Source: Lytechinus pictus
Lineage: Eukaryota
NCBI RefSeq assembly: GCF_037042905.1
Contig: NC_087251.1
Span: forward strand, 30,568,001-30,632,000
Length of the DNA stretch: 64,000 nt
Direction of reading: 5' to 3'
Shown here: positions 4,901 through 58,238 of the stretch, piece after piece
Layout: each line of letters begins with the position of its first letter
How positions within the stretch are numbered: position 1 is the stretch's first letter
Program-made: the position numbers and the translations under genes
The notes under the pieces: model-generated
What the model was told of the DNA's origin: nothing
The model's database searches: none
The model's input: the letters and a program-made list of their open reading frames with translations, nothing else

Positions 4901-5027
4901 ACTGTGGTCGAAAATCTGAATTATGGAATTGTAATAACTATTATTCAATTGTTTAAAGGGTTTTTTCAGCAAGGTTGCATCATTATTTTGCCTTCCAGAT
5001 ATTATTATTTGGCTTTAATATAAGATC

Positions 5028-5925
5028 ATGGCCAAAATGTCAGAAGAGGTGGATCATCTGCTCCAGCTACCAGCTGATAGGATTACTAATGGAGTTGTCA
5101 TTGATCTACTGCCAAAACTCACAAGAGGAGAGGGAATTACATGGTCACAATTTCATGAAATAGTTCAAAACAAATATGACTCTGAATGTTCTTTAAAGGC
5201 CCTTCAGACCAAGTTAACAAGGATCTATGGAAGGTACATGAAACTAAACAAAACAAAACAAACTAAAGACCAAAATGATGTGAAGGTCAACTATCTGCAA
5301 GAACCTTTCGAGCCCCCAGGAAAAATTGTTCAACCTCCAAAGAATGCTAAAGTAGACCAAGATCACGATGCTGCTAGTCCTAAAAAGAGAAAAGTCTATT
5401 CCAATGATCAAGTAGAAAATTTAGGAAAAGAACTTGAGAGATTCAAGGACATAGTACAAAAAACAGAGAGGGAAGTAATGACTTACAAGAAGAAAGTGAA
5501 GCACCTTGAGAAGGAAATGAAAAAGAATAAAGAAAAGGTTCAGTCTTTCACATCTATATTTGGCAGTGTAAGAGGTGGAAGAAAACGGATTACCGAAACA
5601 ATAAAGCGACTTAAACAATCTAAAAGGGAATGGAGGGTAAACTATCAAATGACAAAGAGTGAAGAAAAACGGAAGACAATTGAAATTACGAGACTTCGAG
5701 CACAATTGCAAGAAGAAAAGAGAAGACGTCAAAGAATTCAAAAGAAATACACAGAGCAAGAAAAAAATCAAGGTCGCCCAGAAGCAACAGGAGATTGAAC
5801 AACTCAAAGAAACTGTTGAAAATCTTCAATATGAAAAAGACAAGTCCCATCATCCTCAACAAATCCAAACCAAGATTGGTCAGTCCTACACCCCTCAGAT
5901 AAGAGAAGCATCCTACTATTTACAG
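5028..5925 (+). pseudogene. DNA transposase gene, first coding exon (basic, coiled-coil N-terminus), frameshifted at the A7 run 5761-5767
   Basis: ORFs 5028-5798 and 5659-5946 join if one A is removed; acceptor ttccag at 4998, donor CAG|GTTGGC at 5925, phase 0. Confidence 0.7.
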
Positions 5926-6921
5926 GTTGGCTTTGAATCAAGTTGATTTATAAAAAATAAAGTGATAGGAATTAAGTCATATAATGTTCATAATAGTCAT
6001 TTCAAAACTCCCCTTGTGACATTTTTAATATGTAAAACAGGTAATTGATCAGATACATGATTGTTTCCTGTGATACAGTACTAAAAACTGATCACAAAGA
6101 CCCAATTTCATAGAATATTGTATTATGGTAAACTTTGCCATTCCGGGGTAACTTGTCTAGAATCTTTGATTTTGATTGGTTGGTGATTAGCATTACCATG
6201 GGATGGCAAAATTACCATTATATTAGCTTGTATTTGTATGCAAAGTTGCCCTTGTCTATGATATAAAAATTACCTACTTCAATTGTTATAAAAATGTAGC
6301 GATTATTGCTTTTACATTTTTCATTAATAGCAAGGATGTTAAAAGGGATTGAAGTTCACTCAAATGCAAATAGAATAATTCAAGAATAGGATCTTTGAAA
6401 CCTTGATAACAATTGGGCAAAAAAGTTATGATGAGCATGTGTATGTTGATAACAGCATAGCTTATTATTTATCAAAAACTTCCTGTCTTCTACAGTTCAA
6501 CTGGTTTCAAGGATTTCATTCCTAATTATTGTTCACAATGAAGTTATTTCTAGAGCATGTTTTATTTCTTCCTATATTTAAACCATTTTAGATAATTTTA
6601 ATTTTGACTCAGTAATCTATAAGCATGTACTCAATTTCTTAAGTTTAAGTAATTTTTACAAAGTTTAATACTGTTTTAAATAACAAAAAGTCTCATTATA
6701 ATTGTTCTGGCAAAAAAGGCAAAGCCCAAATATGCTAACCCCAAATCTAACACTACACATTGATTTTCCTAACATAGTTTTAAACAAACTTCTGTCAAAC
6801 CCTAACCGTAACCAACTGTCATTGGATCAATTGCCACAAGAGCAAATGTCACATCATTCTGATAAAGATTGCATGCAAAATTATTACTGTATCCCTCCCC
6901 ACTTTTATAAATAAATTACAG

Positions 6922-7549
6922 AACCTAGGAGTCGCAGAAGGCAAAGTAAGTGAAGCAATTAGAGTTGTTGCAGAAACTCTATGTGATGTGACCTTCACGA
7001 ATGAGCTACCGTCTCGGCAAACTCAAGGACGCTTTGCTTCTGAGATGAAGGCAATTTGTCGGGACCAGATTGAGGAGCATTTTGTGTCAAAAAGCAATAC
7101 AACATTAAAGTATGATGGGACAACAAAATCGCGAGTTGGTCACCTAGTAGAATGCGAACTAGCTTCTAAAGAGAAAACGTACTTGGTAGGATTATGCCAG
7201 CAAGCTGGAGGAACAAGCGACGAATATATCAGTGCTATCAATGAATCTCTATCGGATGTGAATCCTTTACTGCTTGACGGCATAGCAAATATGATGACGG
7301 ATCGAGCGAGTGTAAATACAGCAATAGACAGGAAACTTTCTGACCTGAAAGGGGAATCTCATATCAACAGCTTCAGATGTGGAATGCACCCTCTGGACAC
7401 CCTTGGTAAGGCATGTGATAATGCATTAAAGGAGAGTGAAAGCCAAGATAAATATCATAGACTTTTCAAGAAGAGAGGGGAGAGTAATACCGCGTGCCTC
7501 ATCAGAAAGGTATCTGATTTATTCCATAATGAGGCAACTGGATGTGGTA
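6922..7549 (+). pseudogene. DDE transposase catalytic exon (hAT-like, CxxH group), truncated
   Basis: Acceptor ttacag at 6921 in frame with the previous exon; motifs LKYDGTT, MMTDRASVN, FRCGMHPLD; transposase-like sequence ends at the junction with another element at 7550. Confidence 0.8.
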
Positions 7550-7900
7550 TAGACCAAAAGCTTCAGTCTCTGTATTTTGGTTGTTCCGCTGAACTACGTT
7601 GGCTCCACTCACCATACATAGACTGAAGGGGATGGGGCCCCGTACCTACAGCCAACGTATAGTGAACTAGCGTTTTATAGATCGCGATTTAAAACTGTTT
7701 TTTAAGCAAAATTGAAAGTTTCATGGTTTCCATGATCAGGGAAATATAAATAACTTAAGTAATTGCATACCTTGGGCCGGAGTTATTGAAAAAAATCCTC
7801 TGGATGATTGAGAAATCTGTCATCTAAGACATTTTCACCTGACCCGTCGGTTTTTCTTGCAAGTTGCCATCTTGAATGACGTCATTATCGTTATTAACTT
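7550..7900 (-). mobile_element. Terminus of a non-autonomous element with subterminal hairpin and CRE/YY1 cassette
   Basis: 7550-7628 is nearly identical to the reverse complement of 57848-57927; 15-bp inverted repeat CTTCAGTCT(C/A)TGTAT; TGACGTCA at 7877-7884. The inner boundary is approximate. Confidence 0.7.
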
Positions 7901-10900
7901 AATGTCTCGAATCGATATATCGCGATTATAACTAGTAGTACTAGTACTAGTATAACTAGTATCGTTTATCTTCGGTTTCGTTCGCATATGGAGCAGATCA
8001 TATAATATCGAAAGCAATATCGATATCACATTCGTGATTGTTGACGTTCGTTCGTAAATATTTTATAGTTTGGCTGCCATTTTGACCATTTTTATCGTGT
8101 TCAACCCAATTAAACATCGGTAAAGTATATTTTTCATGCCTTTTTCATCTATATCGTTTTAAGTATTTTCATAATGGAATATCAAATATTAAAAGTTTGT
8201 TTGTTATACATCCTTAGATTGTAAATTCGATGTGTAAAATTACATCAAACTTTGGACTGTGAATTGACAAAAGGGAGGGAATGAGAACACATGCGAGCCC
8301 ACACGTACACCCTACCGTCGGTAAATGGGGATTACAGTAAAATGTCAGAAATTGTTGAATAAATCCCCAGAAACGACGGTTATTCCTGTCTAGATGTGGT
8401 ATTGCTCTGACATCCTTTCTGAAGACTGCTGGTTGTCCAGCGACAACATTTTTTTTATATTAATTTCCTGTTTGGTCTCATCTCAAATGGTCTAGTCCAT
8501 AGTCGGATGGGACAAGGGCAGATTGAGAGACAGGGCCATCTTTCATCGCTAGGTTGAATACTAGTGCCAACGGGTTGATTACTAGTACCAAAATCCGTCG
8601 CCATATAATTCGATCGCCCGCGCACACAGTCAACTGGTTGAAGAAAAAAATAACGGAAAAAGAATAACCAGCATTTGCTCTTGGAAATAAGACGGGTCTG
8701 AAATTCAGGTAAATTCTGACTATATTTCTATTTGAGGAAACTCTCCAAACGGGTTGAATACTAGTAGGGATCCCAAAACGAAAATCTAATTTTTTAAATC
8801 TATGTTTAAAAGCATTGAAAAGTACCTCACCTGAATCAGCATATTAAAAAACCCCAAGTGAATGACTTTTAGTGTTCCAAAGAGATCTAAATATCTGTTA
8901 ATCTGAGGCTAAAGTGGGTCCGAATTGTGACAGATTTGTGTACAAATTTCATTTTGAAATTTCGTCGACACGTACGCACAGAGCTCGGCACTGAACGAGG
9001 GATTGTGGGCGTGTCCTTTCTCGCCTCGGCCTATTGTTACCCAAATACACAACTCGAACGAAAGTGCGTTCACCGTCCCAGTTAGTCTCGGATCCGAGCT
9101 TATCCAAATAAACAATGATTAAATAACAACAAAAAATAGAAAGAAGAGAAAAGAGAAAAAAAATGGCTCAAATGCAGTCGTTTGGTGACGGATAGTATGC
9201 TCTGACCTCTTGCTGATATAAGGATTAGATATGACATAAGTTTTATGCCATGATAACTAAAGCATGGGGGGCGGGGGCACTGACTTTCAAAATAATAAAT
9301 TCTTTAAACATCTATATCTAGGCAAGGGAGGGTCCAGGATTTTCCAAAGGGGGGAGGGCACTATTAGCGGCGGCAATCAAAAAAATTTAGGGGGGGGGCA
9401 CCAAAATTTTTGACAAAAAAAGGTTATCAAAGGGGGGACCGAAAAAAAAAAATTTAGCCCCCCAAAAAAGGTAACAACGTCCCCCCATAGGCAGCGGGGG
9501 GGGGTCGTGTCTCCCCTAAATTTGAGGTGGGGGACAATCGCCCCCCCCCCTCCTAATTTTTTTGTCGATAACCTTTTTTTTTTGCTTGTCAATTTTTTTT
9601 CCTGCGTGCCCCCTAAATTTCAGTGGACCCCCCTAAAAATTTCATGGGGTCTCCCCTAAAATTTGGTTGATAAACCTTTTTTTTTTTTGGGGGGGGCTTG
9701 TCACAAAATTTTGGTGGTCCCCCTCCCCTAAATTTTTGCTTTCCGTTGCCAATGGTCCCAACCTCAGATTTAGGGGGGACAGGGCCTATGGAGGGCACAT
9801 TTTCCCGATGCAAATTTGATAAGCATTACAAAATGTTTTTACCAAAAATTCAAAGTCATTTCGTCCCTAAAAATTGACAAGCAAAAAAAATAGGGCCTAT
9901 ATAATATATATATAAATATACATATATATATATATATCCTCACTTTCAAGGGGCATGCTTGGGTAAAAAGGGCATGTTTATGTTACAAATTACAAATTTG
10001 GCTCTCGATAATTATGCCCCTTGGATCCACCAGTAATCTAAGTGGAATTTTTTGTTTTGAGTTTTGATATGGCTACCTTCTCGGAGGGCGTCCTCGCCGC
10101 GGTAGCTGGATAGTGCTGCAAAAGAGTAGGCCTTATACATCTTTTGCAGCATTAACTGACACTCCGAGACTTATAATTTTACCTTATACTTAAAACATGA
10201 ATAATACAAAATAAAACATAACACTTGTTTTTGGAGTAAGTTGATGTCAAAATATATTCAGTCTGGGGCATGGTGACTTGGAACTCTGCCCCATATCATT
10301 GTACTTGCCTCGCTCGATTTGTATCATAAAAAAAAATTAAAAATGTTTCCACATTAAAATATAGATCTAAGTACAATGGCCAGAAATAATAGTACGAATA
10401 AGCTAGCAGAATTTGTATCATACCACCCATATTATTGAACGCCAACGAAGGCAGTTTCTAAATCCTGTTTGCTTTATCCCACTTTTCCACTAAGATTTAT
10501 CCCTTTTGCGTGTCATATGAAAGCAGTTTTGTGCGCAGATCTAGCGTACCGGTAGGACCACATGCAGTCATTAATAGCTCTCTTTAATTTTTTTTCAACA
10601 AATGATGTCTCATGCTTTCGTTAAAATTAATAAATTAGAATCCTTGTATATGGCCCTGGGAAGTGGGGTGCTCGGGTTGTGACCCCCAAGTTTTTTTTTT
10701 TTTTTTTTTTTTAGCTGGTGGTGCGTTTTTTGTACACGTATATAGTTTAAAACAGGAAGAAGAATGACATTGATTTTTGTACCGCATTATTTTCATTAAT
10801 TTATTGGTAGAAATACAAAAAAAAAAGTTTTGAAAAAACATTTTTCAAAACTATTCCGCGGCTCCTGGAAGAATGGAGAGATGGACGGAAGGAGAGAAAT

Positions 10901-19676: not shown

Positions 19677-20131
19677 AGGGATGGTCCAGGCTGAAAATAT
19701 TTATATCTAAATGAATAGAGTAAAATTCACAGAGCAAAATGCTGAAAATTTCATCAAAATTGGATAATAAATAATGAAGTTATTGAATTTTAAAATTTAT
19801 CAATATTTTGTGAAAACAGTTATGTGCACATCGTCATGAATATTCATTTTGGTGGGCTGATGATGTCACATCCCCACTTTCCTTTTTCTTATGTTATTAC
19901 ATGAAATAATAAATGTTTCATTTTTTTCATACATGTGTAAATGAGGTGTCTCCATTATGATGAAATAAGTTGCGGCAATAAATAATGCACTTAATCAGTT
20001 ATCAATCCAATTGTTTAATAAACAATAACTTCGTCATTTGTTATCCGATTTTGATCAAATTTTCAGCATTTTGCTTTGTGAATTTTACTCTACTTATTGA
20101 GATATAAATATATCCAGCCTGGACCATCCCT
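19677..20131. mobile_element. TTAA-flanked MITE (Kolobok-like, AGG..CCT termini)
   Basis: TTAA|AGGGATGGTCCAGGCTG ... CAGCCTGGACCATCCCT|TTAA. Confidence 0.85.
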
Positions 20132-20134
20132 TTA

Positions 20135-21058: not shown

Positions 21059-21062
21059 TTAA

Positions 21063-21676
21063 AGGTCAAGTCCACCCCAGCAAAAAGTTGATTTGATTAA
21101 ATAGAGAAAAATCAAACTAGAATAACGCTGAAAATTTCATCAAAATCGGATGTAAAATAAGAAAGTTATGACATTTTAAAGTTTCGCTTATTTTTTCACC
21201 AAAAAAAATAAATGCACAACTCAGTGACATGCAAATGAGTCAGTCGATGATGCCCATCACTCACTATTTCTTTTGCTTTTTTATTGTTTGAATTATACAA
21301 TACAGTATTTCATTTTTTATAGATTTGACCATAGGCTATAGGAACCGACTTGACTGAACCATATAGCATTAAACAAGGCTAATTCCACATGTTCAGTGAG
21401 GAATTAATCACTGTTTCACTTGACAATGAGGAGAAAATTAGAATATTTCACATTTTATATAAGAAAATACAAAAGAAATAGTGAGTCATCAGCTAGTCTC
21501 CTCATTAGCATACCGACCAAGATGTGCATATAACTGTTTTGTGAAATTAACCAAAACTTTAAAATGTCATAGTAACTTTCTTATCTTACTTCCGATTTTG
21601 ATGAGATTTTAGTGTTATGCTTGTTGGATTTTTCTCTTTTTATTCAAATCAATTTTTGTTGGGGTGGACTTGTCCT
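21063..21676. mobile_element. TTAA-flanked MITE (Kolobok-like), second family
   Basis: TTAA|AGGTCAAGTCCACCCC ... GGGGTGGACTTGTCCT|TTAA. Confidence 0.85.
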
Positions 21677-23195: not shown

Positions 23196-23321
23196 ATGGC
23201 CGACACAAGTTCGAAAGATTTGCCTTTCAGGGTGGAGTATGCGAAAAGTAACCGTGCTTCGTGCAAGTCATGTCGCAACAAAATCGACAAAGAGTCATTG
23301 AGATTAGCTAAAATGGTTCAG
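23196..23321 (+). CDS. PARP1: PARP1 exon 1 (zinc finger 1, N-terminal half)
   Basis: [34 protein letters not shown]; donor CAG|GTAAGT, phase 0. Confidence 0.96.
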
Positions 23322-37320: not shown

Positions 37321-38074
37321 GTAAGAATTCTTATCACTGTATAAATGATACGTTTTTCCTTTTGGGCCCTGTTTCTTCTATGTTGTAACTTGATGCTGAA
37401 ATTCTTGCTCTTTATTTTCCATCTCTTGCAAACATTTTTGTTCATGAAAATGATGAAATAAAGGAACCAAGAATTATTGATGATTTATCACAACTTTATA
37501 AAAACTGACATATCATTTGTAAAGCCTAGGGTCTCTTTTTTTTTTCCATCTAAAATCTCTGGGGGCCAATGTCATAACAAGGTGGACACCATGCTTGTCC
37601 ACAAGAGCATATTAAAAGGATTTTCACAATGATCAAACATCACAATTATCAAAATTGCCAAAATCAGGTAAACTATTCAATAGCCTTGTGCGAATGGTGT
37701 GCGGAAAGGATATATAGGGACAAATATGTATCCTTTTTGCACACCATTCACATATATTTTTAAACGATAGTACCGTAAAAATAGAATATCTGATACATTA
37801 TTTAGGATGGGGAGGACCTTGCTTGACAGTGGCATATATTTAGAACCTAATATCGCAATAAAAATCAAAACTTCGAACTACCTGTACACATAATAAATCA
37901 AGAAAAAAAGGTAAGATTTTAATGTAGGCTTAAATAGATAAAGGGAACATAATTTAATATTATTTATAGGAAGTTTGTTCAATAGGCCCATATCATACTG
38001 TGCCTTTCCTGATAACTTTCTTATTGAATCATATTTCATATTTAATGATGGTATATTAACCTTTGACCTTACAG

Positions 38075-38155
38075 AGTCAAAGTTCACTGCTGTTTTGCCG
38101 AAGACCTCTAAGATGCAGCTGAAAGGAGGAGCTGTGGTGGAGGATCAAAGTCTAG
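38075..38155 (+). CDS. PARP1: PARP1 exon 12 (immediately before WGR); gene presumably continues beyond the window
   Basis: SKFTAVLPKTSKMQLKGGAVVEDQSL matches PARP1 MKLTLKGGAAVD; phase 1 to 1; donor GTAAGT. Confidence 0.92.
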
Positions 38156-40095: not shown

Positions 40096-42206
40096 CAGAG
40101 CTGCCAACCATTACGTTTTTGCCGTAATCATTACGTTTTTTCATTCAAATTACGGCATTATGGTTTTTCTTTTCAAATTACGTTTTTTGACAATTTTGAT
40201 AATGTGTGTACATAATTGTATGTATGTGGAGTGCGTGTTGAGCCCACTGAACTAGAAATACGTATTTCTAGTTCAGTGGTTGAGCCCGAGATGAGCCTGG
40301 TATTTGCGCGTGCGTAGTCGCCCGCCGGCCGGTTTTCCAACGCACTTTAATAATTTGATAGCGTTCACGTACATATACGTTAGTTGAATATGCGAGCGGC
40401 ATGCATGGTACGAATCGCGATGTATAGCGACTGGTAAATACGTCTGTAACGATGATGACGTCATCCAAGATGGCAACTTACGATGACAAACGAAAGGATC
40501 GAGGATGATTATGTTTTGATCATCATTTGAAAGGAAATAACAGTAACTGCGGTCTAAGGTACGATATTTCTGAATTTTATATATTTTATCTTAAATTTGC
40601 ATGTAATTTCTTTCCTATAAAGTGATGTTTTATGTACAAAAAAACGATCCGAAAATCAGATTTCAGAATTTAGATCTAACCTTACTTGTCTTTACGCACG
40701 GGCCAACACTCTTCAGGTGATCGAGCCAACGTTTGTTCTTCCAGCGCAGAGCGAGGAGTACGATGAATTGGGTAGGGTAATTCCCAAATGTAGTAAGAGA
40801 AGAGTCCATTTGTAATGGAGGGGGATTTGGAGGTTTGAGGGAAATTATTATTCCATTTGCAAAATTTTACAAAAATACTCATCATATATATTAAAGATTG
40901 AATCATCAAAAGATATTTTTCATATACTTTAAAATTAATTGTTGTGATAAAGAAATGAAATTTTGAGGCTATTTTCTTGAATTGATTAATATCAATTCCC
41001 TTCGGATAACGGTACGGTACTGTCTGGTTAATTTTCATCAACTCGTAATCGTATCAAACAAATACGATGAATTCGGCTTTGAAAAGACCTGGAAAGCTCT
41101 TCATTGTCCCTTGAAGTAATAATTCTGGGTGATATTCAACATTTATTGATAGTTTCACATGATTTATACTAGAGAGATGTCCTACTGCCTTTGGAATTCA
41201 TTAAAAAAGTCGGCACTTTAGCATTCAGTTTAGCAGGAATGGGAAGATTTCTTCCCCGGTTCTGGCGGCCTAGATGTCTGCTCTATAGTGCCGTCACTGC
41301 TGGGGATGATTGAGTGTGCGTGCAGTGTGATTGAGGCTGAGCTGTGCACATCGTGAAGTGATTTACGATGGGACTTTTGTGGAATGATTTCAACTTCTTA
41401 TCTATAGATCTATTTGAATTTTAGATTAGATTGATTTATGAATAATTTTTCTATATTTGTGGAATGTTACATGTACACTTCCATTTTATGACACTTTAAT
41501 TTTAAAGGGTACTGTTTGGCAAAAACAATGTTACTTGGGAAGAGAAGTCTGAATTGATGTCAACTTTTTTTTTATATTTCTCTTAGTCTACAATTTGGTA
41601 GTTTTGTCAGGAAACTCAACATAAAACAATTAATTATTTTAGAAGTGGAAAGGAAGCCCCAGAAAAATGGGGCCCTAAAAATGTTCACCAGAACTGATTT
41701 TGGTGCCCCTGAAAGAATTTTTTCTCGACAGATCTTCACTTTGATAAGTGCCGGAGTAGGTTGCACTACAAAATGAAAGGCCTACTTGTCATTTTTAGAA
41801 AAATTTGCCTAGGTGCCCATTTGACAAGAATAAAAGTGGCCTTCATGTCCTTTAGAATGGCCTTGATACCCCTTGAAATTTTGGGGCATCCAAGGCCACT
41901 TTGCCGGTTGCCCCAAGCTGAAAGTGCCCATTTGAAAATGGCCTTGCCCCTCTCAATTCTTAATTCAAGCCCTGCTACTGACTTAATTAAAATAAGGGTC
42001 CAATTTGTAACGCTCCGTTACTTAGCCCAGACTAGGCCTAGAGATTAACTTTTTTTAAATTGTTCACTGCATACATACTTTTTGCATTGGATGTTTGTCG
42101 CATGTCGTTTTAAGGTTCGTTTTAACACATTCCTTTTTTTTGTTGGAAATTCCTTTTTTTGGCCGTAATGATTCCTTTTTTTGCTTGCACAAGGTTGGCA
42201 GCTCTG
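40096..42206. mobile_element. Non-autonomous DNA transposon, TIR CAGAGCTGCCAACC, 6-bp TSD GATCAG
   Basis: 14-bp perfect TIR with GATCAG at 40090-40095 and 42207-42212. Confidence 0.85.
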
Positions 42207-44393: not shown

Positions 44394-45961
44394 CATACCT
44401 GCCAACCATTCCGATTTTGGCGGAATTATACCGATTTTTAGACCTCCATTCCGAATTCCGAATTTTAAAACCAAAATTCTGATTTTGGGGTCAATCAATA
44501 TTGTGTTGAAATTATTGAAACGGCTGTATGATGCGACTAACGCATGCACGGCTGTAAGATGCGACTAACGCATAAACGACTGGAGCACACGGCTACGCAA
44601 ATGCGCTAGCTACGCTATACACAGCTGAGCGATTTTAAACGGCGCGCAAACACTGCTAAGTACGCAGTTCCATTGCAAATGCATGTGAAAATAACGAGCG
44701 TACACGCAATGGCCGCACTTAAGGTGCTACATTTTGAGGTGTTGTCGTATTCTTCATGTTTTTTTTTAATTATTTTTTCGATATTAGCTTTGACTTCCGG
44801 AAAAAAATGGCGGCTGACATCGGCTAGCGAAAGTGCCAGTTTTTAGTGAGGACATGTTTTCATAATCCACGAACATTGGAAAAACCATGAAAAACTCACT
44901 TTTTTAGACCCCTTGTTTCCTAACTACGATGTTAAGAATCATATATGGTGATATTTTTTATGTGAAATATGGTAATTTAGGTAACAAAAATTCACTTTTT
45001 ATTTGAGGATTTGCTCATGTCGTCGGATAATTTTGTAGTGTGGGAGTGAGTTAGTGAATGTGTAGTGCACATGTCTAGAGTGTGTTGGTGCTCTCAGTGT
45101 TATATTGCCGAGTCTGCTGGGCTGATGAACGGCTGCATACCAACCCCCCGCACACCGACGCAGTTACTCTTAAGTTAGATCTATCCCTACGCAATTTTAA
45201 CATTGATCTGTACTTTATTTTTTGAATAATTGTCAAATTTTTGAGGAAAAAAGGAGATTATCAACTTCCGATCTCAAGTTGAGCCTTCGGAGCCAAACAC
45301 CAAATCTACTTGCTTTGCTTGCCTAAACTCCCGGCGCCCGCCGAGTTGCTTTGCCTCAGCCTCCCCGTCTCACCGGCGCACCGCAAGTGCAGTGGTGGGT
45401 GCGGGTCGGGCGCATGCAGCCGTTAGTTTCGGCTCCATTTTTGTCATGGTTGAAAATCTGCTTTCTTATACCAACAAACACTTATCCAATGTAGGTTATG
45501 ATATAACCTTCTTGTTCCAAGACTCAATTGAATTCTTGAAATTAATTTTTTCTAATTGAAAAGAAAATCTGTGGAGATGAAGATTTGCATCAATCTCATT
45601 TTCCACCAATAGAGGGCCTCACAAAATATGCTCAAAATTAAAGTTTTTGGTGAACAAGAAAAATTGTCCCCAAGTCTATATAGATTTAAATGAAAACAAA
45701 TCATACCTGAATGAAACTGGGTGGTCTTTTGTCACAAAAGTGATATTTTAAAGACTTTTTTAATTTTTAATTGAGAAATAAAAAAAGTAGACTCTACATG
45801 TATGTAGGTCATCCTCTGGTGTGGTAATGAGGGTAAATTTGCGTTAAAAAGTGTAGGGAAATTCAACTTTTACATGCTGAAATCGCAAAGAGTCCCTACC
45901 GTTAGAGCGGGCCGTACACCCGCTCGGCGCCCTCGTAGCTTTGATACTGATTGCAGGTATG
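44394..45961. mobile_element. Non-autonomous DNA transposon, TIR CATACCTGC, 6-bp TSD CATATT
   Basis: TIRs and flanking CATATT (44388-44393, 45962-45967) seen directly; CpG-rich interior. Confidence 0.75.
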
Positions 45962-48867
45962 CATATTACTTAATGTTAAGTAAAGAACTTGAATCATAAA
46001 CAAAATGGATATCCTTCTAAAATTAGTGTGGCTGAAATATTTGCATTTGGTTACTTGGTACAAATTAATTTTATACTTTTATGTAAAGAATTTGATCAAT
46101 TGTGATTATACCTGCACATGAACAGTATGAAAATAAAAACCATTCCCCAAAATCTATATTTGACGCAAAACAAATAGATGGTGTGTTTGATCTGAAATGT
46201 ACAAGAATAGCTGGATTTTTTTTAGCCTAGCTGGAAGATGTCAAATTGGTACTGTTAATGTGTTGATAAGTACCATAATGCTTGAGATGGTGTGTCGTAG
46301 TACCAGCCTGCCTGCTCTTCAGAGTTTACTGGTTGGAGTGCTTGTGGGAAGTCAGCGAGCATTGTGGGTAATGGTAGAGAGGTGTGTAAATCTTAATTGT
46401 GATGACAAGTACCTAGGGACGGTTATTGATTTCTCACTTTGACATTTTAAACTTTTACATCCACTCTTAAAATGAAATGTGTTTGCTCTCCTATTTTGTT
46501 ATATGTGTACAAGGAGTGTCATGTCTATTTTGATGCAGTCCTGTTTGATATGTTGCAACTGTTTTTTAATGCTGTCTTTTTTATTTTATCTCTACGAAAT
46601 TCTGTATTTAAAATAAACTTTATTTTTGCGCATATCCTCTTCATGTTTGAGATTGAAATGATTATGGTGGTTTGGGGTTGTAGTGTTCTCTATTGAGGAG
46701 AACATTGAATACTCTTAAAATATTATTAGCATGTGCTTTTAAAATCTGAATATTTTAGAGTATATTCAATCAAACTATGATTTGTGCATTAATTTTGCAC
46801 TGTCATTTTCATATTATTCTGTTATTATGAATGGTTCTTATTATTTTCATTTTGAGTATACCGTAATTAAATTTACAATGCCTATGAGAACCTGAAAGAA
46901 CTTAGAAGTAACACCATTTAAATCTAAATTTCAATTTATTCAAACATAAAAATAGTATATTATACAATATATAGGAATAAAATGATCAGCAACCCTTTAA
47001 AACCTAGGATGTGATTGGGCCAAAACATCATCTCATCAAAAGATAAAGAAATGCAAATAAATTTACTAATATACTGTAGGTATGTGTATACCAAAGCCCC
47101 TCCACTTCCATTACCCCCCCCCCCTCCCTTTTCCATAAATATATGCAAGGTATTCAACACTGATGGTTTTACTGGCCTGTTTGTGTATATACATTTTTAT
47201 GTCAGGGAGGAATTTATGGTATCTTTGATGTGTAGTGCCGCTAATGACAGTTGAAATATATGGTGTTGGTGTGATGAGTATGTTAAATGACAGGAAAAAA
47301 TGACACATTGAGATGAGGAATTTATTGGAAATGGCTGTGGGAAGGTTTTGGTAAAATAATGGCACAATGGAATGGCAGTTGTTTGTATACATTCTTTTTT
47401 TTCTTCTTCTTCAATGAATTTGTAAGCAAAGGAATTGACCATAAGGGTTTCAGATTCATACTGAAACTTGTGTTTCTCTCTTCCTATTTATCTTGTCTTA
47501 CCACTTTTCCTTTGCAATAGCATTCTGCTTCATTTGTATATAACACTTTGGTTTTCAGTCTTTGTAGCACTTTCTTTTCTTACTTTTTTGGAAATACCCC
47601 TTCTTTGTCTCTGTCTATTTCTACATTGTATCTCTGTTGTTCCCTCTCTCTGACTCCCACTCTCTATCCCTGAATCCTTTTTAATCTACCTAACTATCTT
47701 AATACTTACAATATTTGTTCTCCCATCACACCATCCACAAATTATTTCATGAATGAATAACAAAATTGAAGTCATTGTTTACAAGTGTCAACCATTGCAC
47801 TTGATTAAAATACAAACAATACTTGTATGCTAATGACCCACTTAAGCTGCAAGGATTCTGTGCGCACATTATCACACATCAATTAAATTTCTCCTTCTTG
47901 TTTGGCCTTGATGGTTAATTAAGACTAAAGAGATGTTTTCTTTTCAGGAGCCTTCCAAATAATGGCCCTTAGAAATACTAGAGCAGTGTATTGCTGTGTC
48001 TTTCAAGAGCTCAATATACGTCATAAATTTTCTCAGTGACGTAAATGGTGGATCCATGTGTTGCATATTAAAGGGAGCTATTAAACAAGGCTATTAAAAA
48101 GATGAATGAGGTGTCCAGAAACCTTGACATAGATTTAAATGAAGTATCTCGTATGAATAAAATTTAGAGAATAGGTCAAGAATAGATTAAAAGAATCAAA
48201 ATGTAAGGGGAAAAAATTATATCAAATTATACAATGTGCAATGAATGACAAATAAAAATGATGTGAATTTGTAATTGAAGAATTAGAATACATGTTTAGA
48301 GAAGAAACAAAATTGATCTATAATAAATACATTAAATGAAATGACTAATTAGAAGAACTTAAATGAAAAATTGAAATAAGTAGTCACTACTATCATTACA
48401 TCTAGTAAGAAGAAGAGAAGAATAACAAGAAGAGGAGGAGAGAGGTGGGAAGAAAAAGGAGGAGGAGGGGCAGCGGCAGAGGCTGAGGAAAGAAAGAAAA
48501 TGAGGTGAAAAATAATTTGAACCTTTTGTCTACAAGAACAAATGAAAGGACAGGTTGCCCATATTCTTAATTGTAGTTATACATTTCTTTTATTAGAACT
48601 GTCTCATTGAAATTACAGAATCCAGAAGAATTCAAATTTTTAAATATAATCTTGACTTGTAATATATTATTGTAATTGCAAAATAGAAAGAGTTAAAAAT
48701 ATAAAAAGAAATAAAAAGAGAGTAGGGGGCGGACTGAAGTTGCATGGGCCTTGGAGAAATCAGAAATGAATAGGAATAACTACTCAAACCCTAATTACTT
48801 GGGGGAAAAAATATATGATTTCATAAGAATTTGTTATGTTTAATGCCTGATGGTAGTACTGCTACTT

Positions 48868-49980
48868 CTATAACCAAACATCATTATAACTTGATTGTCT
48901 GTTAAATGTTCTCCTAGAAGCACTTCCATTTTTAATGCTGTTCGCTCTCAAAAGTCTCCTCCTGTTGTATCTGCAGCAGAGAATATCCCAACACTCGTGC
49001 CGAAAACTAGGATTTATCATAGAATAAAGAAGTGGATTTAAAACTGAGTTGAGATACGGTAGAATATTCCTGCAAATGTACACAATCAGCACCTTCATGA
49101 CTTGTGGGTCCTCGTGCACAAAACTGTGATATATTTCAAGGATGGTCCTCGGTAACCAGCATATGATAAAAACAGCAATGACCAGAAGGAGACGCTTGGC
49201 GACGATCAAGCGTGTCTGGTTCATGACCCTACACCGTCCAAGTTGGTGCTGCGCATGGCGGTTTCGTTTCGATAGGACAGAGAAGATACGGAGGTAGTTC
49301 ATTCCTATGACAGTCAATGGTAGGATGAGAGTGATAGACGCCTGGCCTATGGCAAGGAAGATCCTCATTGGAGAACCCACCTTCACCGTGAACCGACACC
49401 CTGGAGCGCCGTAGTAGAACACCGCTGGGAACGCCACCAGGACGGACATGACCCAGATGCAGATGATGATCTTCCGCACCATCCTGGAGTGTATGCGCAT
49501 GTCGAAGGGTCGGCAGAGGGAGTAGAAGCGATCGATGGAGATCCCAACTAGGATCCATGATGAACAGATCAGAGTTTGGTGCCAGATCACCATTATCGCC
49601 TTACACTCAGAAGCTGTGATCCTACGATGCATGGCCATGATCTCAAAGTATATATGCATTGGCACAACAATGATACAGACTGTGCAGTCAGTTATGGCTA
49701 AGCTACAAAGAAAGTGATTTGCTGTTGACTGCTTACGTTTGGTGTTTCTCAGGTACACTAGAATCACCAACATGTTGCCAACTGTTCCAGTGACAAGGAA
49801 AACGGACATGAGCACAAGGTCGACTACAGAATGTATTGCACTTGGTTGAGGAAAGTAGAAAGGGTCAATAGTTGGCTCTTCTTCAGATCCATTTAATAAT
49901 AAACTATTGTTTTGAGTCCCACTATAAATATCATATGATAGAGATTCATAATACCAACTTTCTGTCCCTGTGGAGGCCAT
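48868..49980 (-). CDS. Class A (rhodopsin-like) GPCR, peptide-receptor-like, about 370 aa, single coding exon
   Basis: Seven hydrophobic segments with GN, LAITD, C(TM3), DRF, W(TM4), FIICWLP, NSVLNPLLY and helix 8; N-terminal NxS sites. Start chosen at agaATGg (49980); an in-frame ATG in weaker context lies at 50007. Confidence 0.93.
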   Translation of the reverse strand: MASTGTESWYYESLSYDIYSGTQNNSLLLNGSEEEPTIDPFYFPQPSAIHSVVDLVLMSVFLVTGTVGNMLVILVYLRNTKRKQSTANHFLCSLAITDCTVCIIVVPMHIYFEIMAMHRRITASECKAIMVIWHQTLICSSWILVGISIDRFYSLCRPFDMRIHSRMVRKIIICIWVMSVLVAFPAVFYYGAPGCRFTVKVGSPMRIFLAIGQASITLILPLTVIGMNYLRIFSVLSKRNRHAQHQLGRCRVMNQTRLIVAKRLLLVIAVFIICWLPRTILEIYHSFVHEDPQVMKVLIVYICRNILPYLNSVLNPLLYSMINPSFRHECWDILCCRYNRRRLLRANSIKNGSASRRTFNRQSSYNDVWL

Positions 49981-51284
49981 TCTGCTCTGGGATATATTTT
50001 TTAGCATTAAAGAGCATACATGTGGGGAGGTATCCTTTATTTGTCCAGGTAATGCAAACCACTTCCCTGTGATGTGTTTGCTAATCCTCAAATAAATCCT
50101 CTATCCATTGCATTGCTTATGATGATGTCCAAAGCATACATATACTCCTTGATTCCTTGTTTCATTTTATAGATTTATGTCACTCTCCATTCTTTTACAT
50201 CACATCTTTGTGTCTGGAAACGGCATATCCTGTATATTTCGCCTGGATTCTAGAAAAGTTGGTAAAAGAGAGAAAGAGAGAATCGATTGTAGTGATATGT
50301 TTATTATCCCTTCTATTTTTTTTTATAGCACATTTAGCATTTGACCATGATCTTACAGTATCAAAAGAAATATTTAGATTTGAGACATTTCATATTTTAA
50401 TTTGAAAAAAATTCATTGTTGTTTCGATGAAGATAAACTTCTTTGATAATTCTCCCAGAACTGTACTGTACATCAAATGTAAATTTCAAAAAGTGTGAGA
50501 GGAGAAAGTATTCTCGCCAGGTGAAGAGCATGTTTATATTCACTTTACCCAAAATATCGAGAGCAATATTTTGACAGCTTAGAGAATTTGAGTAATGCCT
50601 TGCTTTCCAAGACACTTAATGACTCAAACTTGTATGGGATAGAAGCTCTTCTGTTTACTTTCCCAGACCTCGTTAGTAAGCACCTCGATGGGTTTAATAG
50701 CGTGCTTCTACGTGCCAGGTTTGTTAGGACATCGCATACCTATTTGTGTAACAATATTTTGGGAGGCTTTTTTAGAAGCAACTTTTGTGCAAAAAAGAAA
50801 ATATGCCAAGATTTGTTTTGGAAGAAAGTTTGATTATTTTTTTTCTTCAATATGAAAGCTACTGACATCAGAGTTCTTAATGCTATTTTGGGTACTTTGT
50901 TTTAAAATTTTAAAGACAGGAATGTGCAACTGAAGCATCCAAATACATACTCATTTTCAGGGTCATTTTGGTGAGAAAGTGTACAGATTTGATTATTTTT
51001 TTTCCATCAAATGCATCAGATGTCTGTATTATTGATTTGAAAAATTAAAAAACCATTCCATTTTTAGCAATTTTATACATCAACCCTTCCTTATCCCATG
51101 TAAGAAAAATGTTTTCTGTAAAAAAGTTTCCTATAAGAGTGGCACATCGCTATATTCCTTATGATCAAAGTACATTCCCACTCCCTCTTGTTTTAGACAT
51201 GTAATATTATTAAATTTAGGGATTTTAAGGCATTCCTAATATAGCTGAAGTATGTGCAAGATGTTCGGTCAATCAAAACGTTAA

Positions 51285-51869
51285 AGGGGAATGAAACCTT
51301 TGGAATAAGTAGGCTTGTGTCGAAACAGAAAAAATCAAAGAAACAGATCAACGAAAGTTTGAGAAAAATTGGACAAACAATGAGAAAGTTATGAGCATTT
51401 GAATATTGCAATCACTAATGCTATAGAGATCCTCCTATTAGCAATGCGACAAGGATGTGTGATGTCACATGTGAACAACTTTCCCTTTGATGGACTGTAA
51501 AATACCCCCAAAATGTATCTTTTTGCTTTTTCTTATGGTGATACAAACTCTTTATCCATGATGCATTCTTTAAAATCTCTAGTACATGCCCTCCTATAGA
51601 AAGAATACATGATTTACTGATAGACGTGATAAAAGAGGCAATTTCAGTGAAATATATACTAAACTAATGGGGAGAGTTGTTCACAAGTGACATCACACAT
51701 CTTTGTCGCATTGCCAATATGAGGATCTCCATAGCATTAGTGATCACAATAATCAAATGCTCATAACCTTTTCATTGTTTGTCCGATTTTTCTCAAACTT
51801 TCATTGATCTGTTTCTTTGATTTTTCTGTTTTCACACAAGCTATCTTGTTCCAAAGGATTCATTCTCCT
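51285..51869. mobile_element. TTAA-flanked MITE (Kolobok-like) with long TIRs of about 200 bp
   Basis: TTAA|AGGGGAATGAAACCTTTGGAA ... TTCCAAAGGATTCATTCTCCT|TTAA. Confidence 0.85.
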
Positions 51870-54004
51870 TTAAGAAATTTGATGGTATGATCATTCACTA
51901 AGCTTTGTTTTACTGAACTCTAGAGTAGAATACAAGCAAGGTGTGTAGGGGGTCATTTCAGGATTATTGAAAATGCCAATCAAGGAATTAATAATTAACA
52001 AAGATAGAATAATTAGACAGTACTTCTATGTAGTCCCATCAGTAATTAAGGCATGTTGACAGTAAATTTACTTAGAAGATCGCCTCATGCTTGTATTTTT
52101 AGCAGGTCTTAATGCAATCACATACAGATTATCGAGACCGGTGTCCTCTTGTCCTCCTTGGTGTGGTCAGGAATTTGCCACTTCCCTGGTGTGGTGTTCA
52201 TGTCACAAGTAATTTTTTATGCTTTTTGTCCCCCTGCATAGTAGAGCAAGACTATAGGCACCGCTTTTCCAACGACAGCAGCGTCAAAATTGAAATCTTA
52301 ACTAAGATTAAGTTTTTTAAAAGCCATAACTTAATTATAAGATTAATTATGTATTTTTTTTGTCAATTGACTGAAACTGAAAATGAAATGAAAATAAAGA
52401 AAGAGGAGTGAAATTTTGAGGCAAAGGGGGGGGGGGTGTATGTTCTCTTGAAACAGTAATTGACCACCATGTTAGCCTTTCCCATCTATTAAAGTGTCCA
52501 CCATTGAATCTTATTCTCAGTCAACCAGCCATGCCTGGTTGCAAATCAATTTAGCCTTACTGATTATCAGCTAATTACTCTATTGACACACCTTGCATTG
52601 GGAATTAGGATGTTTGTAAAAAAAAATACAGATATTTGCATAACATATTAGTGTTATCCTGCAAAGAGTGCTACCTGATCCTTACAAGTGTGCAAACACA
52701 TTATAACACGTGTTACTTGTAGCAGTTTAAGAATATGAGTGTTCATTTGTTTTCTTGAGCTACAGTTTCAGATGAATGTCATACTCGTAAGATCCTTGTA
52801 AATCAAAAATGTTTCCTTTTAAGTTCTATTTCATTTTTTTGTAAATAACATTGGCGAATTTCTTGAATTGTTCTACCAACCTCCAACTGTGGGGATATGG
52901 GTCCAGATTAAAAAGAAATAATGAAAGCTTTTTGAGCCAGTTTGCATTGGTCAAATTCTGTTGTGCAATACTAAATAGTGGCATAAGATTTTTTTATAGT
53001 TTTGGTGAGAGTCCCTGAAGTACTAACTGATTTTGATTATTATCACTCCACAGGGGTGGAAGAGTTAAACTTTAAAGCTTTTTCTTTTCCCTTTTCAGGG
53101 ATTGTCTTCAGCTGTTGGTGAATTACCCCTGTACTAAAGGGGCTTTGCAATTCCATCCCATTTTGTCTCTCTTTATTTGTGTTCACTCCCTAACATTAGT
53201 ATATATATTTTTTGCTATGCCAAAAAAAATTGACTATTATATCACACCTTTAAATACTACATCTAGCTGTATTTCTTTTACTACGTCGTCGTACTACATG
53301 TGCATGTAGATCCCTGTCAATAGACTCCAATTTTCTTATAGGATACCACTAGGATTAAGAAGATAGTAGAGTAAGACATTATCTTATTTTCTATTTGTTT
53401 ATATTAGATGCAGGATAGATATAAATTTGATTCTAGTGACCTAGTATTCTTTGACTTTCAGTAAAACCCAAATTAAAATCTAAATTATACAGAAATGCTG
53501 ATCATATAAATGGGCCCTATCACTTCAGCTGAAAGAAATGCTTTAAACTTGTAATGAAATGTACAGTAATATTCCAAAGGTATTATTTTCCATATTTCAA
53601 AATTATACATCTTTTCTCTGCATGTTTATGTCTTGGTAAGAATTCTTGATAGGTTACAAAATAATGTTTACATGGCTTATTTTGTCATTGTTAAAGAAAT
53701 GATGGGGGTACTAGTAGAAAAATGTTAGATACTTGATTTTTATTCCATTTTTAAATAAGAACAAGATTCCTTTTGATTATTAAAAAAAAAAACCTGCAAT
53801 ATCTACATAGTGATATAGGTAATCTGGGAGAGGTTTCTGAAATCAGCCTTCACATTTCACCCAGTTTACAGTCCCTATCACAACACTTGCCCCAATTCCA
53901 AGAAAGAGTATTCCCCTCTCTATCTCTCTCATTTTCAGTCTCTTTTCATGCTCTCACTCAGTTTGATTTTAGAGAATTCTGCTTTTCTCTATTTTCTTCC
54001 TTCA

Positions 54005-54285
54005 CCTCATCAGATCTTCGGGAACCGCGTTGTTGACAACACGTAGAGTCAAATGCTCATTTGGTGAAAAAGCTTCCGCTAATGGTGCTCCCACTTTGTG
54101 GAATGCACTCTCTTTGACATTATGCAATGACAAGTCTATAGAGTCATTCAAAGCCAACATTAAGACATATCTATTCTCATCATATTTCAAATAACACCCC
54201 CCTTTCTGTGTAATAATTCCCTCTGCGCCTCTGAATAGGAAACTAGATAGAAGGCACACTCTAAATGCTATATATTATCATTATA
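54005..54285 (+). mobile_element. Decayed 3' end of an L2-type LINE
   Basis: Encodes FGEKASANGAPTLWNAL..ESFKANIKTYLF, followed by GCGCCTCTGAA..TAAATG(TAT)n tail. Confidence 0.7.
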
Positions 54286-55701
54286 ATTAAGAGTAGTTTC
54301 ACTTGTAATCTTTGATCTCTTTTCATTCCTAGTTTTAATTTGCTGGCCTTTGTACACATTTGTTTTAAATACAAAAGAGAATTGAATTTCATCCGGCATC
54401 TGGATCCCTTTTTTTATGCACCCTCATGCTTCGTAAATCAACTATACTTTTATTGACGCTACTAAACTTTCACAATCTTTCAGCAGCTCTTTATATATAG
54501 CTTCACAAGCCAGACATTTAATCCCGTAATAAATGTCATTTAGATGTTTATGAACTATGAGACGAAAGAGATCTCAAAGCTCCTTCAGGCAGAACACAAG
54601 AATAACTCCACAAATCTTATTTTAAATAAACCATCTGTCATCTTAAGATTATGAGATTCACATTGAGTCAGTAGTACAGAATATTGTTAGGCAATACACT
54701 CTTGGTTATATTTGAAAGACAAACTGGCAAGCTATTATCTCTTTTTTTTTCTTCAGAATACAAATCTTAGCAAAATTTCAAATAGTTTACCTGCTGAACT
54801 TATTCATTAGCATTATAAAAAGAAGGGAAAACCTAAAAAGGCTTTCCCTTAAAAATATGCATTTATATACATGTATATATATTTCATTGATTACTTTTCA
54901 ATAAAATTATTGCCCCTTTCAGATCAGGATGTGCTTCTCATTCTTTTTCAAACTTGAAAGAAATTAGGTTCAATTATACGATTGATATTGGACTATCATT
55001 TATCATTCCTCTCTTGAAAAAAATATAGTAACAATTTCTTTCATCCATGAATTCTTTGTGAAAATTTCAATTCTATTATTGATAATATTTAGCACCCCCT
55101 TTCTTGGTATTTTTTAAATTTTCTTAATAGCCATTCAAAAACTTATCTTAGGCATTTAGTGATATTACATATTAGGAAGCTACAAACAATGAGTATATCA
55201 CAAAATTGTCAGCTCAAGCATTAGATGGTTGGTGTTACGCCATCCTCCCCCCCCCCCCCCCAAAAAAAGGAGAATTATAATGACTTATAAATTTTTGTTT
55301 GGGTCCTGACCTTTGGGCCATTTAAACATTTTAATTATAAAGTGTACCCATAAATATAAGATTTTACGTCATGTCTTTCAAACGGCTTGTGTTTTATGAT
55401 ATACCCTAAAGTTTTATCTGACATTTAATTCGAACTTTGAAGACTGAATAATCTTTAGATAAATTTGAAAATATATATGTTTGGAGATTAGGTCCATGTA
55501 TGACTTTAGTTTGTAGTGATCCATTAAAAGAGAATTCGATTTTTGATTGATATGTGAGATGATTCCTTATGGAAGGCAAATTAAATTGAAAATGAACAGT
55601 TACACAGACAGTGCTCAGACTGACAGATTTCGTAATCTAAATTTACACTTGTCATTCAGGAATCAGAACAGGGAGATTACTGTTTTACATCAAGAGTGAT
55701 A

Positions 55702-56920
55702 TTAGTCCAGGATAGAAGAGGCATAACCTTGTTTTTTCATATATACAATATTTTTTGATGGTTTCTTGTCAATACGAGGGTGCTGATTATGAATCTGAAT
55801 GATGCCACTCGTGTAACCTTGAGCATTTTCCACAAATTGGCAATATCCAATATGGCCGCCAAAATATGCAAATTACCCATAGAAATCATAAAATTGCCAG
55901 CAAATTGGCTATAAAATGCATGAAATTGTGTGGCAGGAGTGAATAACTCTAAAAAACATAGTTTTTGACAAAATATTTATTTTCTTGATATTCAAAATGG
56001 CCGGCATAGGCCCCTGTATACTCTATTAATTACAATATGAATAGGGAAAACTAATTTTCACAAAAATGATCACAAAACTGCAAGAAATTGTGATCTATGA
56101 ACAAAGTACTGTATGCAAATTATCATTACTAACGAGATATATCATTTATTATGTCATGTATGGGAACATTGCTGTATTTCGATATTTAAAAACGCCGCCA
56201 CTGGCCCAAACAGTACAATGGCCATTGGGGCCAAAAAAATCACAAGAGTGAGCACTAAAATGCATATTATTAAGATAAAGAGTGGAATAATATATTTCGT
56301 TAACAATTATGATTTTAGTCAGTATTCCACTCTTTTATCTTAATAATATGCATTTTAGTGCTCACTCTTGTGAATTTTTTGGCCCCCATTGCCTTTGTAC
56401 ATTATACAATTTGGGCCAGTGGCGGCTATTTTAAAAATTAAAATACAGCAATTTTCCCATACATGACATAATAAATGATATATCTGGTGATTTGCATACA
56501 GTACTTTGTTCATAATATCACGATTTCTTGCAGTTTAGTGCTCATTTTTGTGAAAATTATTTTCCCTATTCATGTTGTACATAATAGAGTATACAGGGGC
56601 CTATGGCGGCCATTTTGAATATCAAGAAAATAAATATTTTGTCAAAAATTATTTTTTCAGAGATTATTTCACTCCTGCCACACAATTTCATGCATTTTGT
56701 AGCCAATGTGCTGGCAATTTTATGATTTTCACGGGTAATTTGCATATTATGGCCGCCATATTGGATTTTGCCAATTTGCGGAAAACGCTCAAGGTTACAC
56801 GAGTGGCATCATTCAGATTCGTAATCAGCACCCTCGAATTGACAAGAAACCATCAAAAAATATTGTATATATGAAAAAACAAGGTTTAGTCAATTTTCTA
56901 CGTGGCCTATCCTGGACTAA
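55702..56920. mobile_element. 1.2-kb foldback element (arms of about 590 bp, 33-bp spacer)
   Basis: TTAGTCCAGGATAG ... CTATCCTGGACTAA; arms are complementary almost to the centre at about 56290-56322. Confidence 0.9.
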
Positions 56921-57092
56921 ATTTACCCTATCTTACCCTATAAACTCACTTGAATCTCTTTAACTCACTTTTTTTATTTCTAAAATTCTTTCTAACAAAC
57001 TTTCAAACTTTTGTTTTATCTATTTAGGTTTTTTAAAATCATTATCATATCAAGTAAAAAAAATATGAGCAGCGTGACCTTACATTATTGTT

Positions 57093-58238
57093 CAGGGATG
57101 CCACTTTTCCGTATTTATACGGAATTCCGGCTTTTTCCCTGCTATCTGTCTTATTTCCGTATTTCCGACTTTTCCTGTTTTCTGTGTATTAAAAAACCGG
57201 AAAGTCCTCCTTTTTTCCCCTCTCTCATGCATGTCGATCGACCGAGTGAGAAATATTTTCCCTAGATATTATTATAAACCCGCGCACTACCCACTACGTT
57301 CAATGAGTTATGCTTTATCGAGGCTTTCCGATTAGAATAAATCCTGGCCAATCAATGTGAGCGACAAGTTCCGAACGCACGCACATAGACAAGCGCAAAG
57401 CAGCGGCACGAATCGCGGTATAATAGCGACTGTTAGATACGTCTGTAAAGATGATGACGTCATCCAAGATGGCAACTTACGATGACCAATGAAGGAATCG
57501 AGGATGACTAAGTTTTGATCATCATTTGAAAGGAATTAGCGGTAACTGCGGTCTAAGGTACGATGTTTCTGAATTTTATATATTTTCTTGTAAGTTTGGA
57601 TGTAATTATTTTTTTATAATGTGACATTTTATGTACCAAAAAACGATCCGAAAATGGGGTTTCCGCCGAATGTTAGATCTAACGTTACTGCTGCATGCTG
57701 ATACGGAACCCAGGGAGCTCCGGCCCGGGAAGCGGGCCGGAGATCCTTGGGTAACGTGTCAGCTAGCCCAAGGAGCTCCGGCCCGCTTTGCAGGCCGGAG
57801 CTCCCTGGGTTAGCTGATACGTTGTCTTTATGTACGGGCCAACAACTCTTCAGTCTATGTATTGGTGAGTGGAGCCAACGCGGTTCAGCTGAACAACCAA
57901 AATACAGAGACTGAAGCTTTTGGTCTAGAGTTCTATGAGAAACACACAACTAATTACCCTCAGTTTTTCAAACCTAATTGACTTCAAAGTCATCGATCAC
58001 AACGAGGTAAGAAGCCACTTGGTCCTCCCCCCCCCCCTCCCCTAAATTTGAGGTGGGGGCGGACCCCCCTCCCCCTCCTAATTTTTTTTTTTTTTTTTTT
58101 TTTTTGCTTGTCCAATTTTTTACCTGTGTCCATCCCAAAATTTAAGGTGGACCCCCCCTAAATTTTTTTCTTTCTTGGACACTGTCCCGGCCCGCGATAA
58201 GTTTCAGTATTTTTGGAGGACACCTAGTGGCATCCCTG
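57093..58238. mobile_element. Non-autonomous DNA transposon, TIR CAGGGATGCCACT, 6-bp TSD ATTGTT, with nested elements
   Basis: 13-bp perfect TIR with ATTGTT at 57087-57092 and 58239-58244. Confidence 0.85.

Follow-up and report, generated by a model that had tools for sequence, protein, structure and literature searches.

Promoter-like motifs in sea urchin PARP1 and LRPPRC introns belong to three DNA transposon families, including hAT6-like shells that lie almost always parallel to host genes

Introduction

Cut-and-paste DNA transposons are usually assumed to be indifferent to gene direction when they insert, and transposon-derived alternative promoters of host genes are a known kind of regulatory sequence. 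AcademH elements were reportedly defined by Kojima in 2020. They create 9- or 10-bp target duplications (available text of PMC10045372), and hAT6 elements are defined by 6-bp duplications (available text of PMC12730594). De novo insertions of Ac/Ds, P, Mu, piggyBac and Minos have been sorted by their preference for the TSS, the TTS or the gene body (PMC7337890, in part), and the word "orientation" is absent from its main text. The available portions of PMC9341512 and PMC2836564 do not address orientation relative to host genes. A literature search, whose coverage mostly left aside subscription journals, Repbase Reports and supplements, found no report of orientation-locked hAT insertion. In bacteria, IS30 targets sites beside its own ends, and the junction promoter that results drives its transposase (PMC9333248, in part).

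We analysed a window of sea urchin DNA, meaning the whole 64,000-nucleotide stretch, that holds AcademH-type and hAT6-like elements, two groups of known kinds. The AcademH-type elements resemble described ones in their 9-bp duplication and in relics of a helicase and a DUF6589-type transposase, and the same genome has an element with a convergent transposase and RecQ-type helicase. They differ in that this lineage yielded gene-less or deleted copies only. A conserved outward unit of putative CRE, YY1 word and splice donor, and insertion 9 bp beside family ends, are extra features here relative to the available parts of PMC10045372 and PMC10799480. The other group, which we call shells, resembles hAT6 elements in the 6-bp duplication, the short CAG...TGCCA terminal inverted repeat (TIR) and the repeat-rich left end. 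The shells differ in that no cognate transposase was found and in their near-absolute co-orientation with host genes. Like Ac/Ds, P, Mu, piggyBac and Minos, they show insertion tied to transcribed genes (available text of PMC7337890).

Results

Three motifs in three element families

A sequence-only reading of the window had described one mobile cassette in three copies, consisting of a putative CRE, a putative YY1 site and a splice donor. The 29-mer is present where it had been placed, at 40451-40479 (+), 57450-57478 (+) and 7889-7861 (-), and each copy is sense to its host gene, the plus copies in PARP1 and the minus copy in LRPPRC. The likeness of the two plus copies, given as about 300 bp, is borne out by a 285-bp alignment at 86% identity. 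The donor positions 40558 and 57557 are each the last exon base preceding GT, and all six ATGs upstream of each donor are closed by stops, as had been claimed. The idea of a single cassette did not survive: the copies are parts of three element families whose ends and target duplications differ, and the interval 40408-40730 lies in the interior of a 2,111-bp element. The hairpin terminus said to be shared marks the true end of the 7.5-kb element only. At 57 kb it survives as a relic at 57927, and the element itself runs on for another 311 bp to 58238.

7550..8392, minus strand: element A, non-autonomous AcademH-type transposon, 843 bp, in LRPPRC intron 1; ends TAGAC...GTCTA
7861..7889, minus strand: putative CRE and YY1-type motif of the A lineage; CGCG word near 7919-7927; donor GT at 7770
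38050..38155, plus strand: PARP1 exon 12 (start approximate)
40096..42206, plus strand: element C, hAT6-like non-autonomous shell, 2,111 bp, in PARP1 intron 12; TIR CAGAGCTGCCAACC
40407..40716, plus strand: captured B-lineage AcademH fragment in C; motif 40451-40479; donor GT 40559; right end decayed
57093..58238, plus strand: element B, hAT6-like non-autonomous shell, 1,146 bp, in PARP1 intron 12; TIR CAGGGATGCCAC
57287..57927, plus strand: right-hand part of a B-lineage AcademH element, captured in B; motif 57450-57478; donor GT 57558; AcademH right end 57927

The three window motifs sit in three different non-autonomous DNA transposons of the sea urchin genome. Helitron, MITE-hairpin and single-cassette readings were ruled out by the termini and target duplications.

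The host genes were placed by exons, within and beside the window, that match protein records labelled as PARP1 and LRPPRC of sea urchin. Twelve PARP1 coding exons lie between 23196 and 38155, and exon 13 begins just past the window at L091:1387 (window-equivalent 65387). Since exon 12 ends at 38155 and exon 13 is outside the window, both plus motifs lie in sense in the 27-kb PARP1 intron 12. LRPPRC exon 2 spans 1962-1711, exon 1 probably lies near 19135 (a single homologue match, E 4e-4), and the minus motif between them is in intron 1. LRPPRC and PARP1 stand head to head with about 4 kb between them (window 19135-23196). PARP1 intron 12 also encloses an intronless rhodopsin-family GPCR gene in antisense, at 48868-50100 (-). 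A 1.16-kb fold-back element with YY1-type words occupies 55725-56886, 200 bp upstream of element B.

The exact 19-base core of the motif has 796 matches in the 812-Mb genome (433 forward, 363 reverse), compared with 0 for a control pattern, so its frequency is far over chance. Finding three motifs within one 64-kb window has P 4e-5 if uniform spacing is assumed, with about 0.5 such windows expected genome-wide. The first 30 matches on contig C1, classed by eye from a BLAST table, comprise 17 A-type, 7 B-matching and 2 C carriers, 2 sister-lineage stand-alone elements with A-like ends, and 2 other carriers.

Element A and its AcademH-type relatives

Copies of element A are 97-98% alike with identical end bases. 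A 9-bp target duplication, the size known for AcademH, flanks 26 of 28 full-length copies; in the window it is GATGTGGTA, at both 7541-7549 and 8393-8401. The donor in A scores 9.3 bits, and host donors span 0.1-11.3. The outer 24 bases of the right end have 2,371 exact genome matches.

7550..7660, minus strand: AcademH-type right end with internal inverted repeat ("hairpin"), 88% to 57817-57927
5019..7549, plus strand: broken, probably hAT-like transposase gene split by element A, in LRPPRC intron 1; ORFs 5019-5798 and 6784-7549

The two other AcademH traits, a superfamily II helicase gene and an Academ-type transposase, are represented in a 4-kb family that shares A's ends and is likewise flanked by 9-bp duplications; of 40 scored, about 20 are near-identical copies. 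Its left end carries a DEAD-helicase exon reading inward (E 5e-6), which matches at 48% the helicase encoded by a convergent element on contig C10. Its N-terminal ORF has 36% identity (E 1e-20) to coding exon 1 of a multi-exon gene; the last exon of that gene matches DUF6589, which we take to be an Academ marker. The examined part of 74 matches to this ORF yielded no intact autonomous parent with A's termini, and ten DUF6589 loci with 14 flanking regions yielded no autonomous element bearing A's ends. Longer "A" copies at C2 and C1 proved to be nested insertions or deletion derivatives.

The separate, unrelated C10 element (L106-L108, G000:C10:32.26-32.28 Mb) is an AcademH element with terminal inverted repeats of about 110 bp and convergent DUF6589 transposase and RecQ-type helicase genes; a CRE lies about 45 bp ahead of its helicase start. 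The L112-L114 region and L175-L186 hold several long DUF6589 ORFs (1,500-1,850 aa), each after an ORF that we presume to be SGNH-esterase-like.

The inverted repeat inside the right end (window 7550-7630; L169:765-846) is likely functional, because its two arms change together between families, from CTTCAGTCT to CTTCGGTCT, an A>G switch in a family without the cassette. An AG that could be read as an acceptor belongs to this inverted repeat and is absent in family D.

The gene split by element A resumes its frame a few codons beyond the element, past 8393. Its family is a lead only, from Atlas matches of 0.78-0.81 to ZBED1 RNase-like clusters; Pfam and structure-database searches returned nothing, and the element ends were not located.

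AcademH-type ends often stand exactly 9 bp from another family end and have the target 9-mer in common with it. This occurred at 12 of 30 loci, in 9 distinct junctions (L256-L260, L263, L266, L267, L273, L277, L278 and L284; also at L041, L047, L163, L171, L240 and L246), and suggests that AcademH elements insert beside existing family ends. The pairs in the 30-locus set are right-right (7 of 12) and right-left; a left-left pair occurs at L171. IS30 and IS911 are alike in inserting beside an existing end, but the AcademH pairs have a 9-bp spacer and are commonly head-to-head right ends, whereas IS30 makes left-right junctions only (PMC9333248, in part). Many AcademH right ends also have one common 14-base flank (L261, L262, L270-L272, L281, L283), which implies that another carrier or a repeated hot spot exists.

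hAT6-like shells and capture of the cassette

Elements B and C have short TIRs of 12-14 bp with the form CAG...TGCCA, which together with a repeat-rich left end we take to be hAT-type. Of 30 loci of C, whose copies are about 98% alike, 24 have both ends, and all 24 show the 6-bp duplication; so do 22 of 29 end pairs of B, with 3 further pairs at 7 bp. Most copies of S, a shell family without the cassette, have it as well. In the window, element B is flanked on each side by ATTGTT. No autonomous copy with the shell TIRs and no cognate hAT transposase was found in the loci examined. Neither group yielded an intact autonomous parent, so the name hAT6 is based on the 6-bp duplication and on the likeness of the TIRs. 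A further shell without the cassette lies in PARP1 intron 12, with the same polarity as B and C:

44394..45961, plus strand: fourth element, hAT6-like shell without cassette; left end CATACCTGCCAACC, subterminal repeats, CATATT on both sides (one copy examined)

The captured fragment in C is 82% identical over 325 bp to a stand-alone element in L254, and the captured part in B is 88% and 94% identical to it. Five shell families with 6-bp duplications (B, C, E, F and G) hold the right 300-640 bp of this sister AcademH lineage, and the repeat-rich shell end is upstream in all of them. Most of B is contained in E. The relic right end has three different flanks, so there were at least three captures, and retention of the motif in shells is partly ascertainment, since the loci were searched by motif. 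L254:327-4578 holds a hAT6-like element that encloses a second one with the same polarity, plus a complete stand-alone AcademH element with its 9-bp duplication. This arrangement is a capture at an early stage.

Origin of the motif

In the 4-kb family, the ATG of the transposase ORF lies about 175 bp inward of the CRE, and the ORF reads inward, opposite to the YY1-to-donor direction. The same layout, in which the motif lies about 330 bp from the right end and the inward transposase ATG about 175 bp further on, recurs in L229, L237, L238, L242 and L249. Given its place about 175 bp before an opposite-reading transposase start in longer relatives, the motif is likely the AcademH element's own promoter. 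Between A and the sister lineage (L237 vs L253), the motif is identical at 18 of 19 bases, the donor region is 70% identical and the right end 90%, and the sequence between is at 43-48%. This contrast with the flanks would be the footprint expected of a functional promoter in active ancestors.

The proposal of a promoter-like unit is thus upheld in altered form, as a motif conserved across two AcademH lineages upstream of a predicted transposase start; promoter activity and CREB/YY1 binding are what its words would predict. The check proposed with it, whether the motif is conserved beyond the rest of its element, came out negative within families. Among 30 young copies each of A, B and C, windows as conserved or more made up 38%, 31% and 79% respectively, in a test whose power is low because the copies are young. 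Movement does not require the motif: it is missing from mini-elements of about 105-150 bp and from family D (446 bp), both of which have 9-bp duplications.

In all three window copies the transposase frame is deleted; most likely the cassette is a mere passenger there and does nothing for PARP1. The conserved donor points outward, away from the transposase, and our best explanation gives no account of it.

Orientation relative to host genes

Loci in this analysis are a non-random sample, and exons on both sides are visible at some of them only. At host exons confirmed by Pfam, shells with the cassette were sense at 22 loci and antisense at 0, and shell family S without the cassette gave 9:0. 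Stand-alone AcademH elements with the cassette gave 4:3. Shells pooled (31:0) differ from stand-alone AcademH (4:3) with a Fisher P of 0.004. A simple exon caller gave sense to antisense counts of 50:2 for shells with the cassette, 16:1 for family S and 17:7 for stand-alone AcademH. The last figure leans towards sense (P 0.06) and would allow a weak effect of the cassette.

The sense bias that had been attributed to the cassette therefore exists genome-wide but is owned by the shells. The cassette does not cause it, since a shell family lacking the cassette is biased alike and stand-alone cassette copies stand at 4:3 by Pfam.

The exon caller is crude. It was trained on 40 PARP1 and LRPPRC exons, and in cross-validation at the chosen threshold its strand calls were correct at 17:2 and 9:0. 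Set 1 held 40 ten-kb loci from the exact-motif list (21 called, 18 sense and 3 antisense). Set 2 added 154 loci, most of them top BLAST matches with little flanking sequence, and 55 of these received a call. Element classes in the caller counts were corrected by hand before the 50:2 and 17:7 figures. The family S control used a 0.43-kb shell with 418 exact left ends; 30 loci were put to the caller, and the repeat-rich end was again upstream.

In the Pfam check of set 1, 76 of 78 candidate exons were submitted. Transposon-derived matches were dropped before counting. In sense these were an endonuclease at L291, reverse transcriptases at L077 and L143, and P2RX7_C at L133, which we take to be mobile; in antisense, a hAT dimerisation match at L320, whose element class was not assigned. 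Two weak matches were dropped as implausible, Exonuc_VII_S at L026 (sense) and Dehydrin at L291 (antisense, E 0.002).

Shells were near exons more often than A copies (47/88 vs 5/29, P 0.001). Target sites at 92 insertions had a weak, roughly symmetric preference. Strong acceptors and poly(A) words had no consistent antisense placement across shells. A bulk base-skew orientation test on 127 loci (T/A 0.006 +/- 0.006, G/C 0.030 +/- 0.008) gave no clear direction and was superseded by the exon calls.

No support for a truncated PARP1

The sequence-only reading had also proposed that the cassette could provide the promoter and first exon of a truncated PARP1 made of WGR and catalytic domain, which would be a reason for it to be kept sense. 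This claim is unsupported. The cassette donors are on par with host donors (8.0 bits), the sense bias is real, and public annotation splits PARP1 across intron 12 into separate N- and C-terminal models. That annotated split is probably wrong, however, and the bias arises without the cassette.

When joined in silico to PARP1 exons 13-14, neither cassette exon supplies an open ATG; an in-frame Met comes only after 11 ATGs, where WGR ends. A transcript from cassette to exon 13 would therefore not yield WGR plus catalytic domain. The annotated C-terminal model starts MTG, and intron 12 has just one ATGACNG|GT, at 61353, which falls within none of the elements.

Spliced contigs from runs X1 and X2 have 1,787 and 1,644 nt ahead of exon 13, the size of exons 1-12 and not of the 108-nt cassette exon. 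Both runs come from one study and are not recorded as RNA, but the contigs are joined at GT-AG exon borders; that they carry exons 1-12 is judged from length. The X3 contig ends 25 nt short of exon 13, and is thus mute on upstream exons. Among 15 listed of 37 contig joints at 46000-64000, none starts from 57557, though assembled contigs cannot show absence. Contigs that run unspliced through the donor are of multi-copy family origin and not assignable to a locus.

The window cassettes are like known transposon-derived host promoters in having promoter-like words and a splice donor, in sense, in an intron. They differ in having no open frame for a WGR plus catalytic protein and no conservation in place above the rest of the element; no chimeric transcript was seen in the assembled contigs.

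Discussion

The reading that we favour, at a probability of roughly 70%, is that a promoter at the transposase end of AcademH elements was kept in gene-less derivatives and captured by hAT6-like shells, which likely insert with fixed polarity to host transcription. In ancestor elements, the AcademH right-end promoter would drive an inward transposase. Gene-less derivatives would keep the promoter motif, and several shells would capture it. An asymmetric hAT-type transpososome may then be steered to transcribed gene bodies, with the repeat-rich end upstream at insertion. It could read elongating Pol II or the chromatin that goes with it, or else a co-directional fork, and the cassette would ride along.

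Shells likely sense the direction of host transcription at insertion, since copies with or without the motif are almost always gene-parallel. We lean somewhat towards polarity being set at insertion and not by later selection; insertion bias and strong selection are not separable in standing copies. For the broader statement, that these hAT6-like cut-and-paste elements have a transcription-set left-to-right polarity in gene bodies and have carried a captured promoter in sense into housekeeping genes genome-wide, we would give even odds.

The alternative that survives best, although we consider it unlikely, is that shells insert without regard to orientation and antisense copies are purged by selection against splice acceptors, poly(A) signals or antisense transcription. 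Element B does have two strong acceptors on its antisense strand, AATAAA is more frequent in antisense in one S copy and in G, and the shells are located in essential housekeeping genes. However, B, C, G and the 0.43-kb S shell are biased alike despite largely unrelated interiors. Element C has no strong antisense acceptor and an AATAAA ratio of 1:1, and in B and F AATAAA is on the sense strand. Purging would also have had to act on C copies just 0.4% off their majority, while stand-alone AcademH elements are antisense at 3 of 7 Pfam-confirmed loci.

Two further explanations concern the cassette itself. By analogy with IS30, it might be an outward junction promoter that drives the helicase once the AcademH right end is joined to a left end in a circle or tandem. 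This would make sense of the CRE-YY1-donor polarity, which agrees with the helicase direction, of a donor region 70% kept between lineages, of an acceptor scoring 8.4 at base 136 of the left end, and of the family ends that stand 9 bp apart at 12 of 30 loci. We think it improbable: the nine-base rows are right-right in 7 of 12 cases and IS30 junctions are solely left-right, the helicase side bears its own YY1-like word, and no circle junction or transcript was seen.

No better placed is the idea that the CRE and YY1 words serve transposition, with host proteins helping to handle the element end. The spacing of about 330 bp to the right end is fixed across lineages and the motif is repeatedly retained in shells, as this would predict, but the mini-elements and D family move without the motif, right ends outnumber motifs by 2,371 to 796, and S shells spread to 418 exact left ends without it. 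A cassette retained to make truncated PARP1 is very improbable, given closed ATGs, a C-terminal model start that fits 61353 only, and contigs with sequence the size of exons 1-12 before exon 13.

Our favoured reading leaves the PARP1 claim unsupported and the direction lock of the shells as the finding worth following. A group with all 31 of its Pfam-confirmed copies parallel to the host gene would suggest that a transposase is targeted through elongating transcription or the chromatin that goes with it. Hundreds of young copies would let the lock be checked simply by counting on an annotated genome. The lock would also mean that a promoter-like passenger can reach hundreds of genes in sense without selection for any benefit to the host. 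That would be a caution against taking "sense in an intron" as a sign of function.
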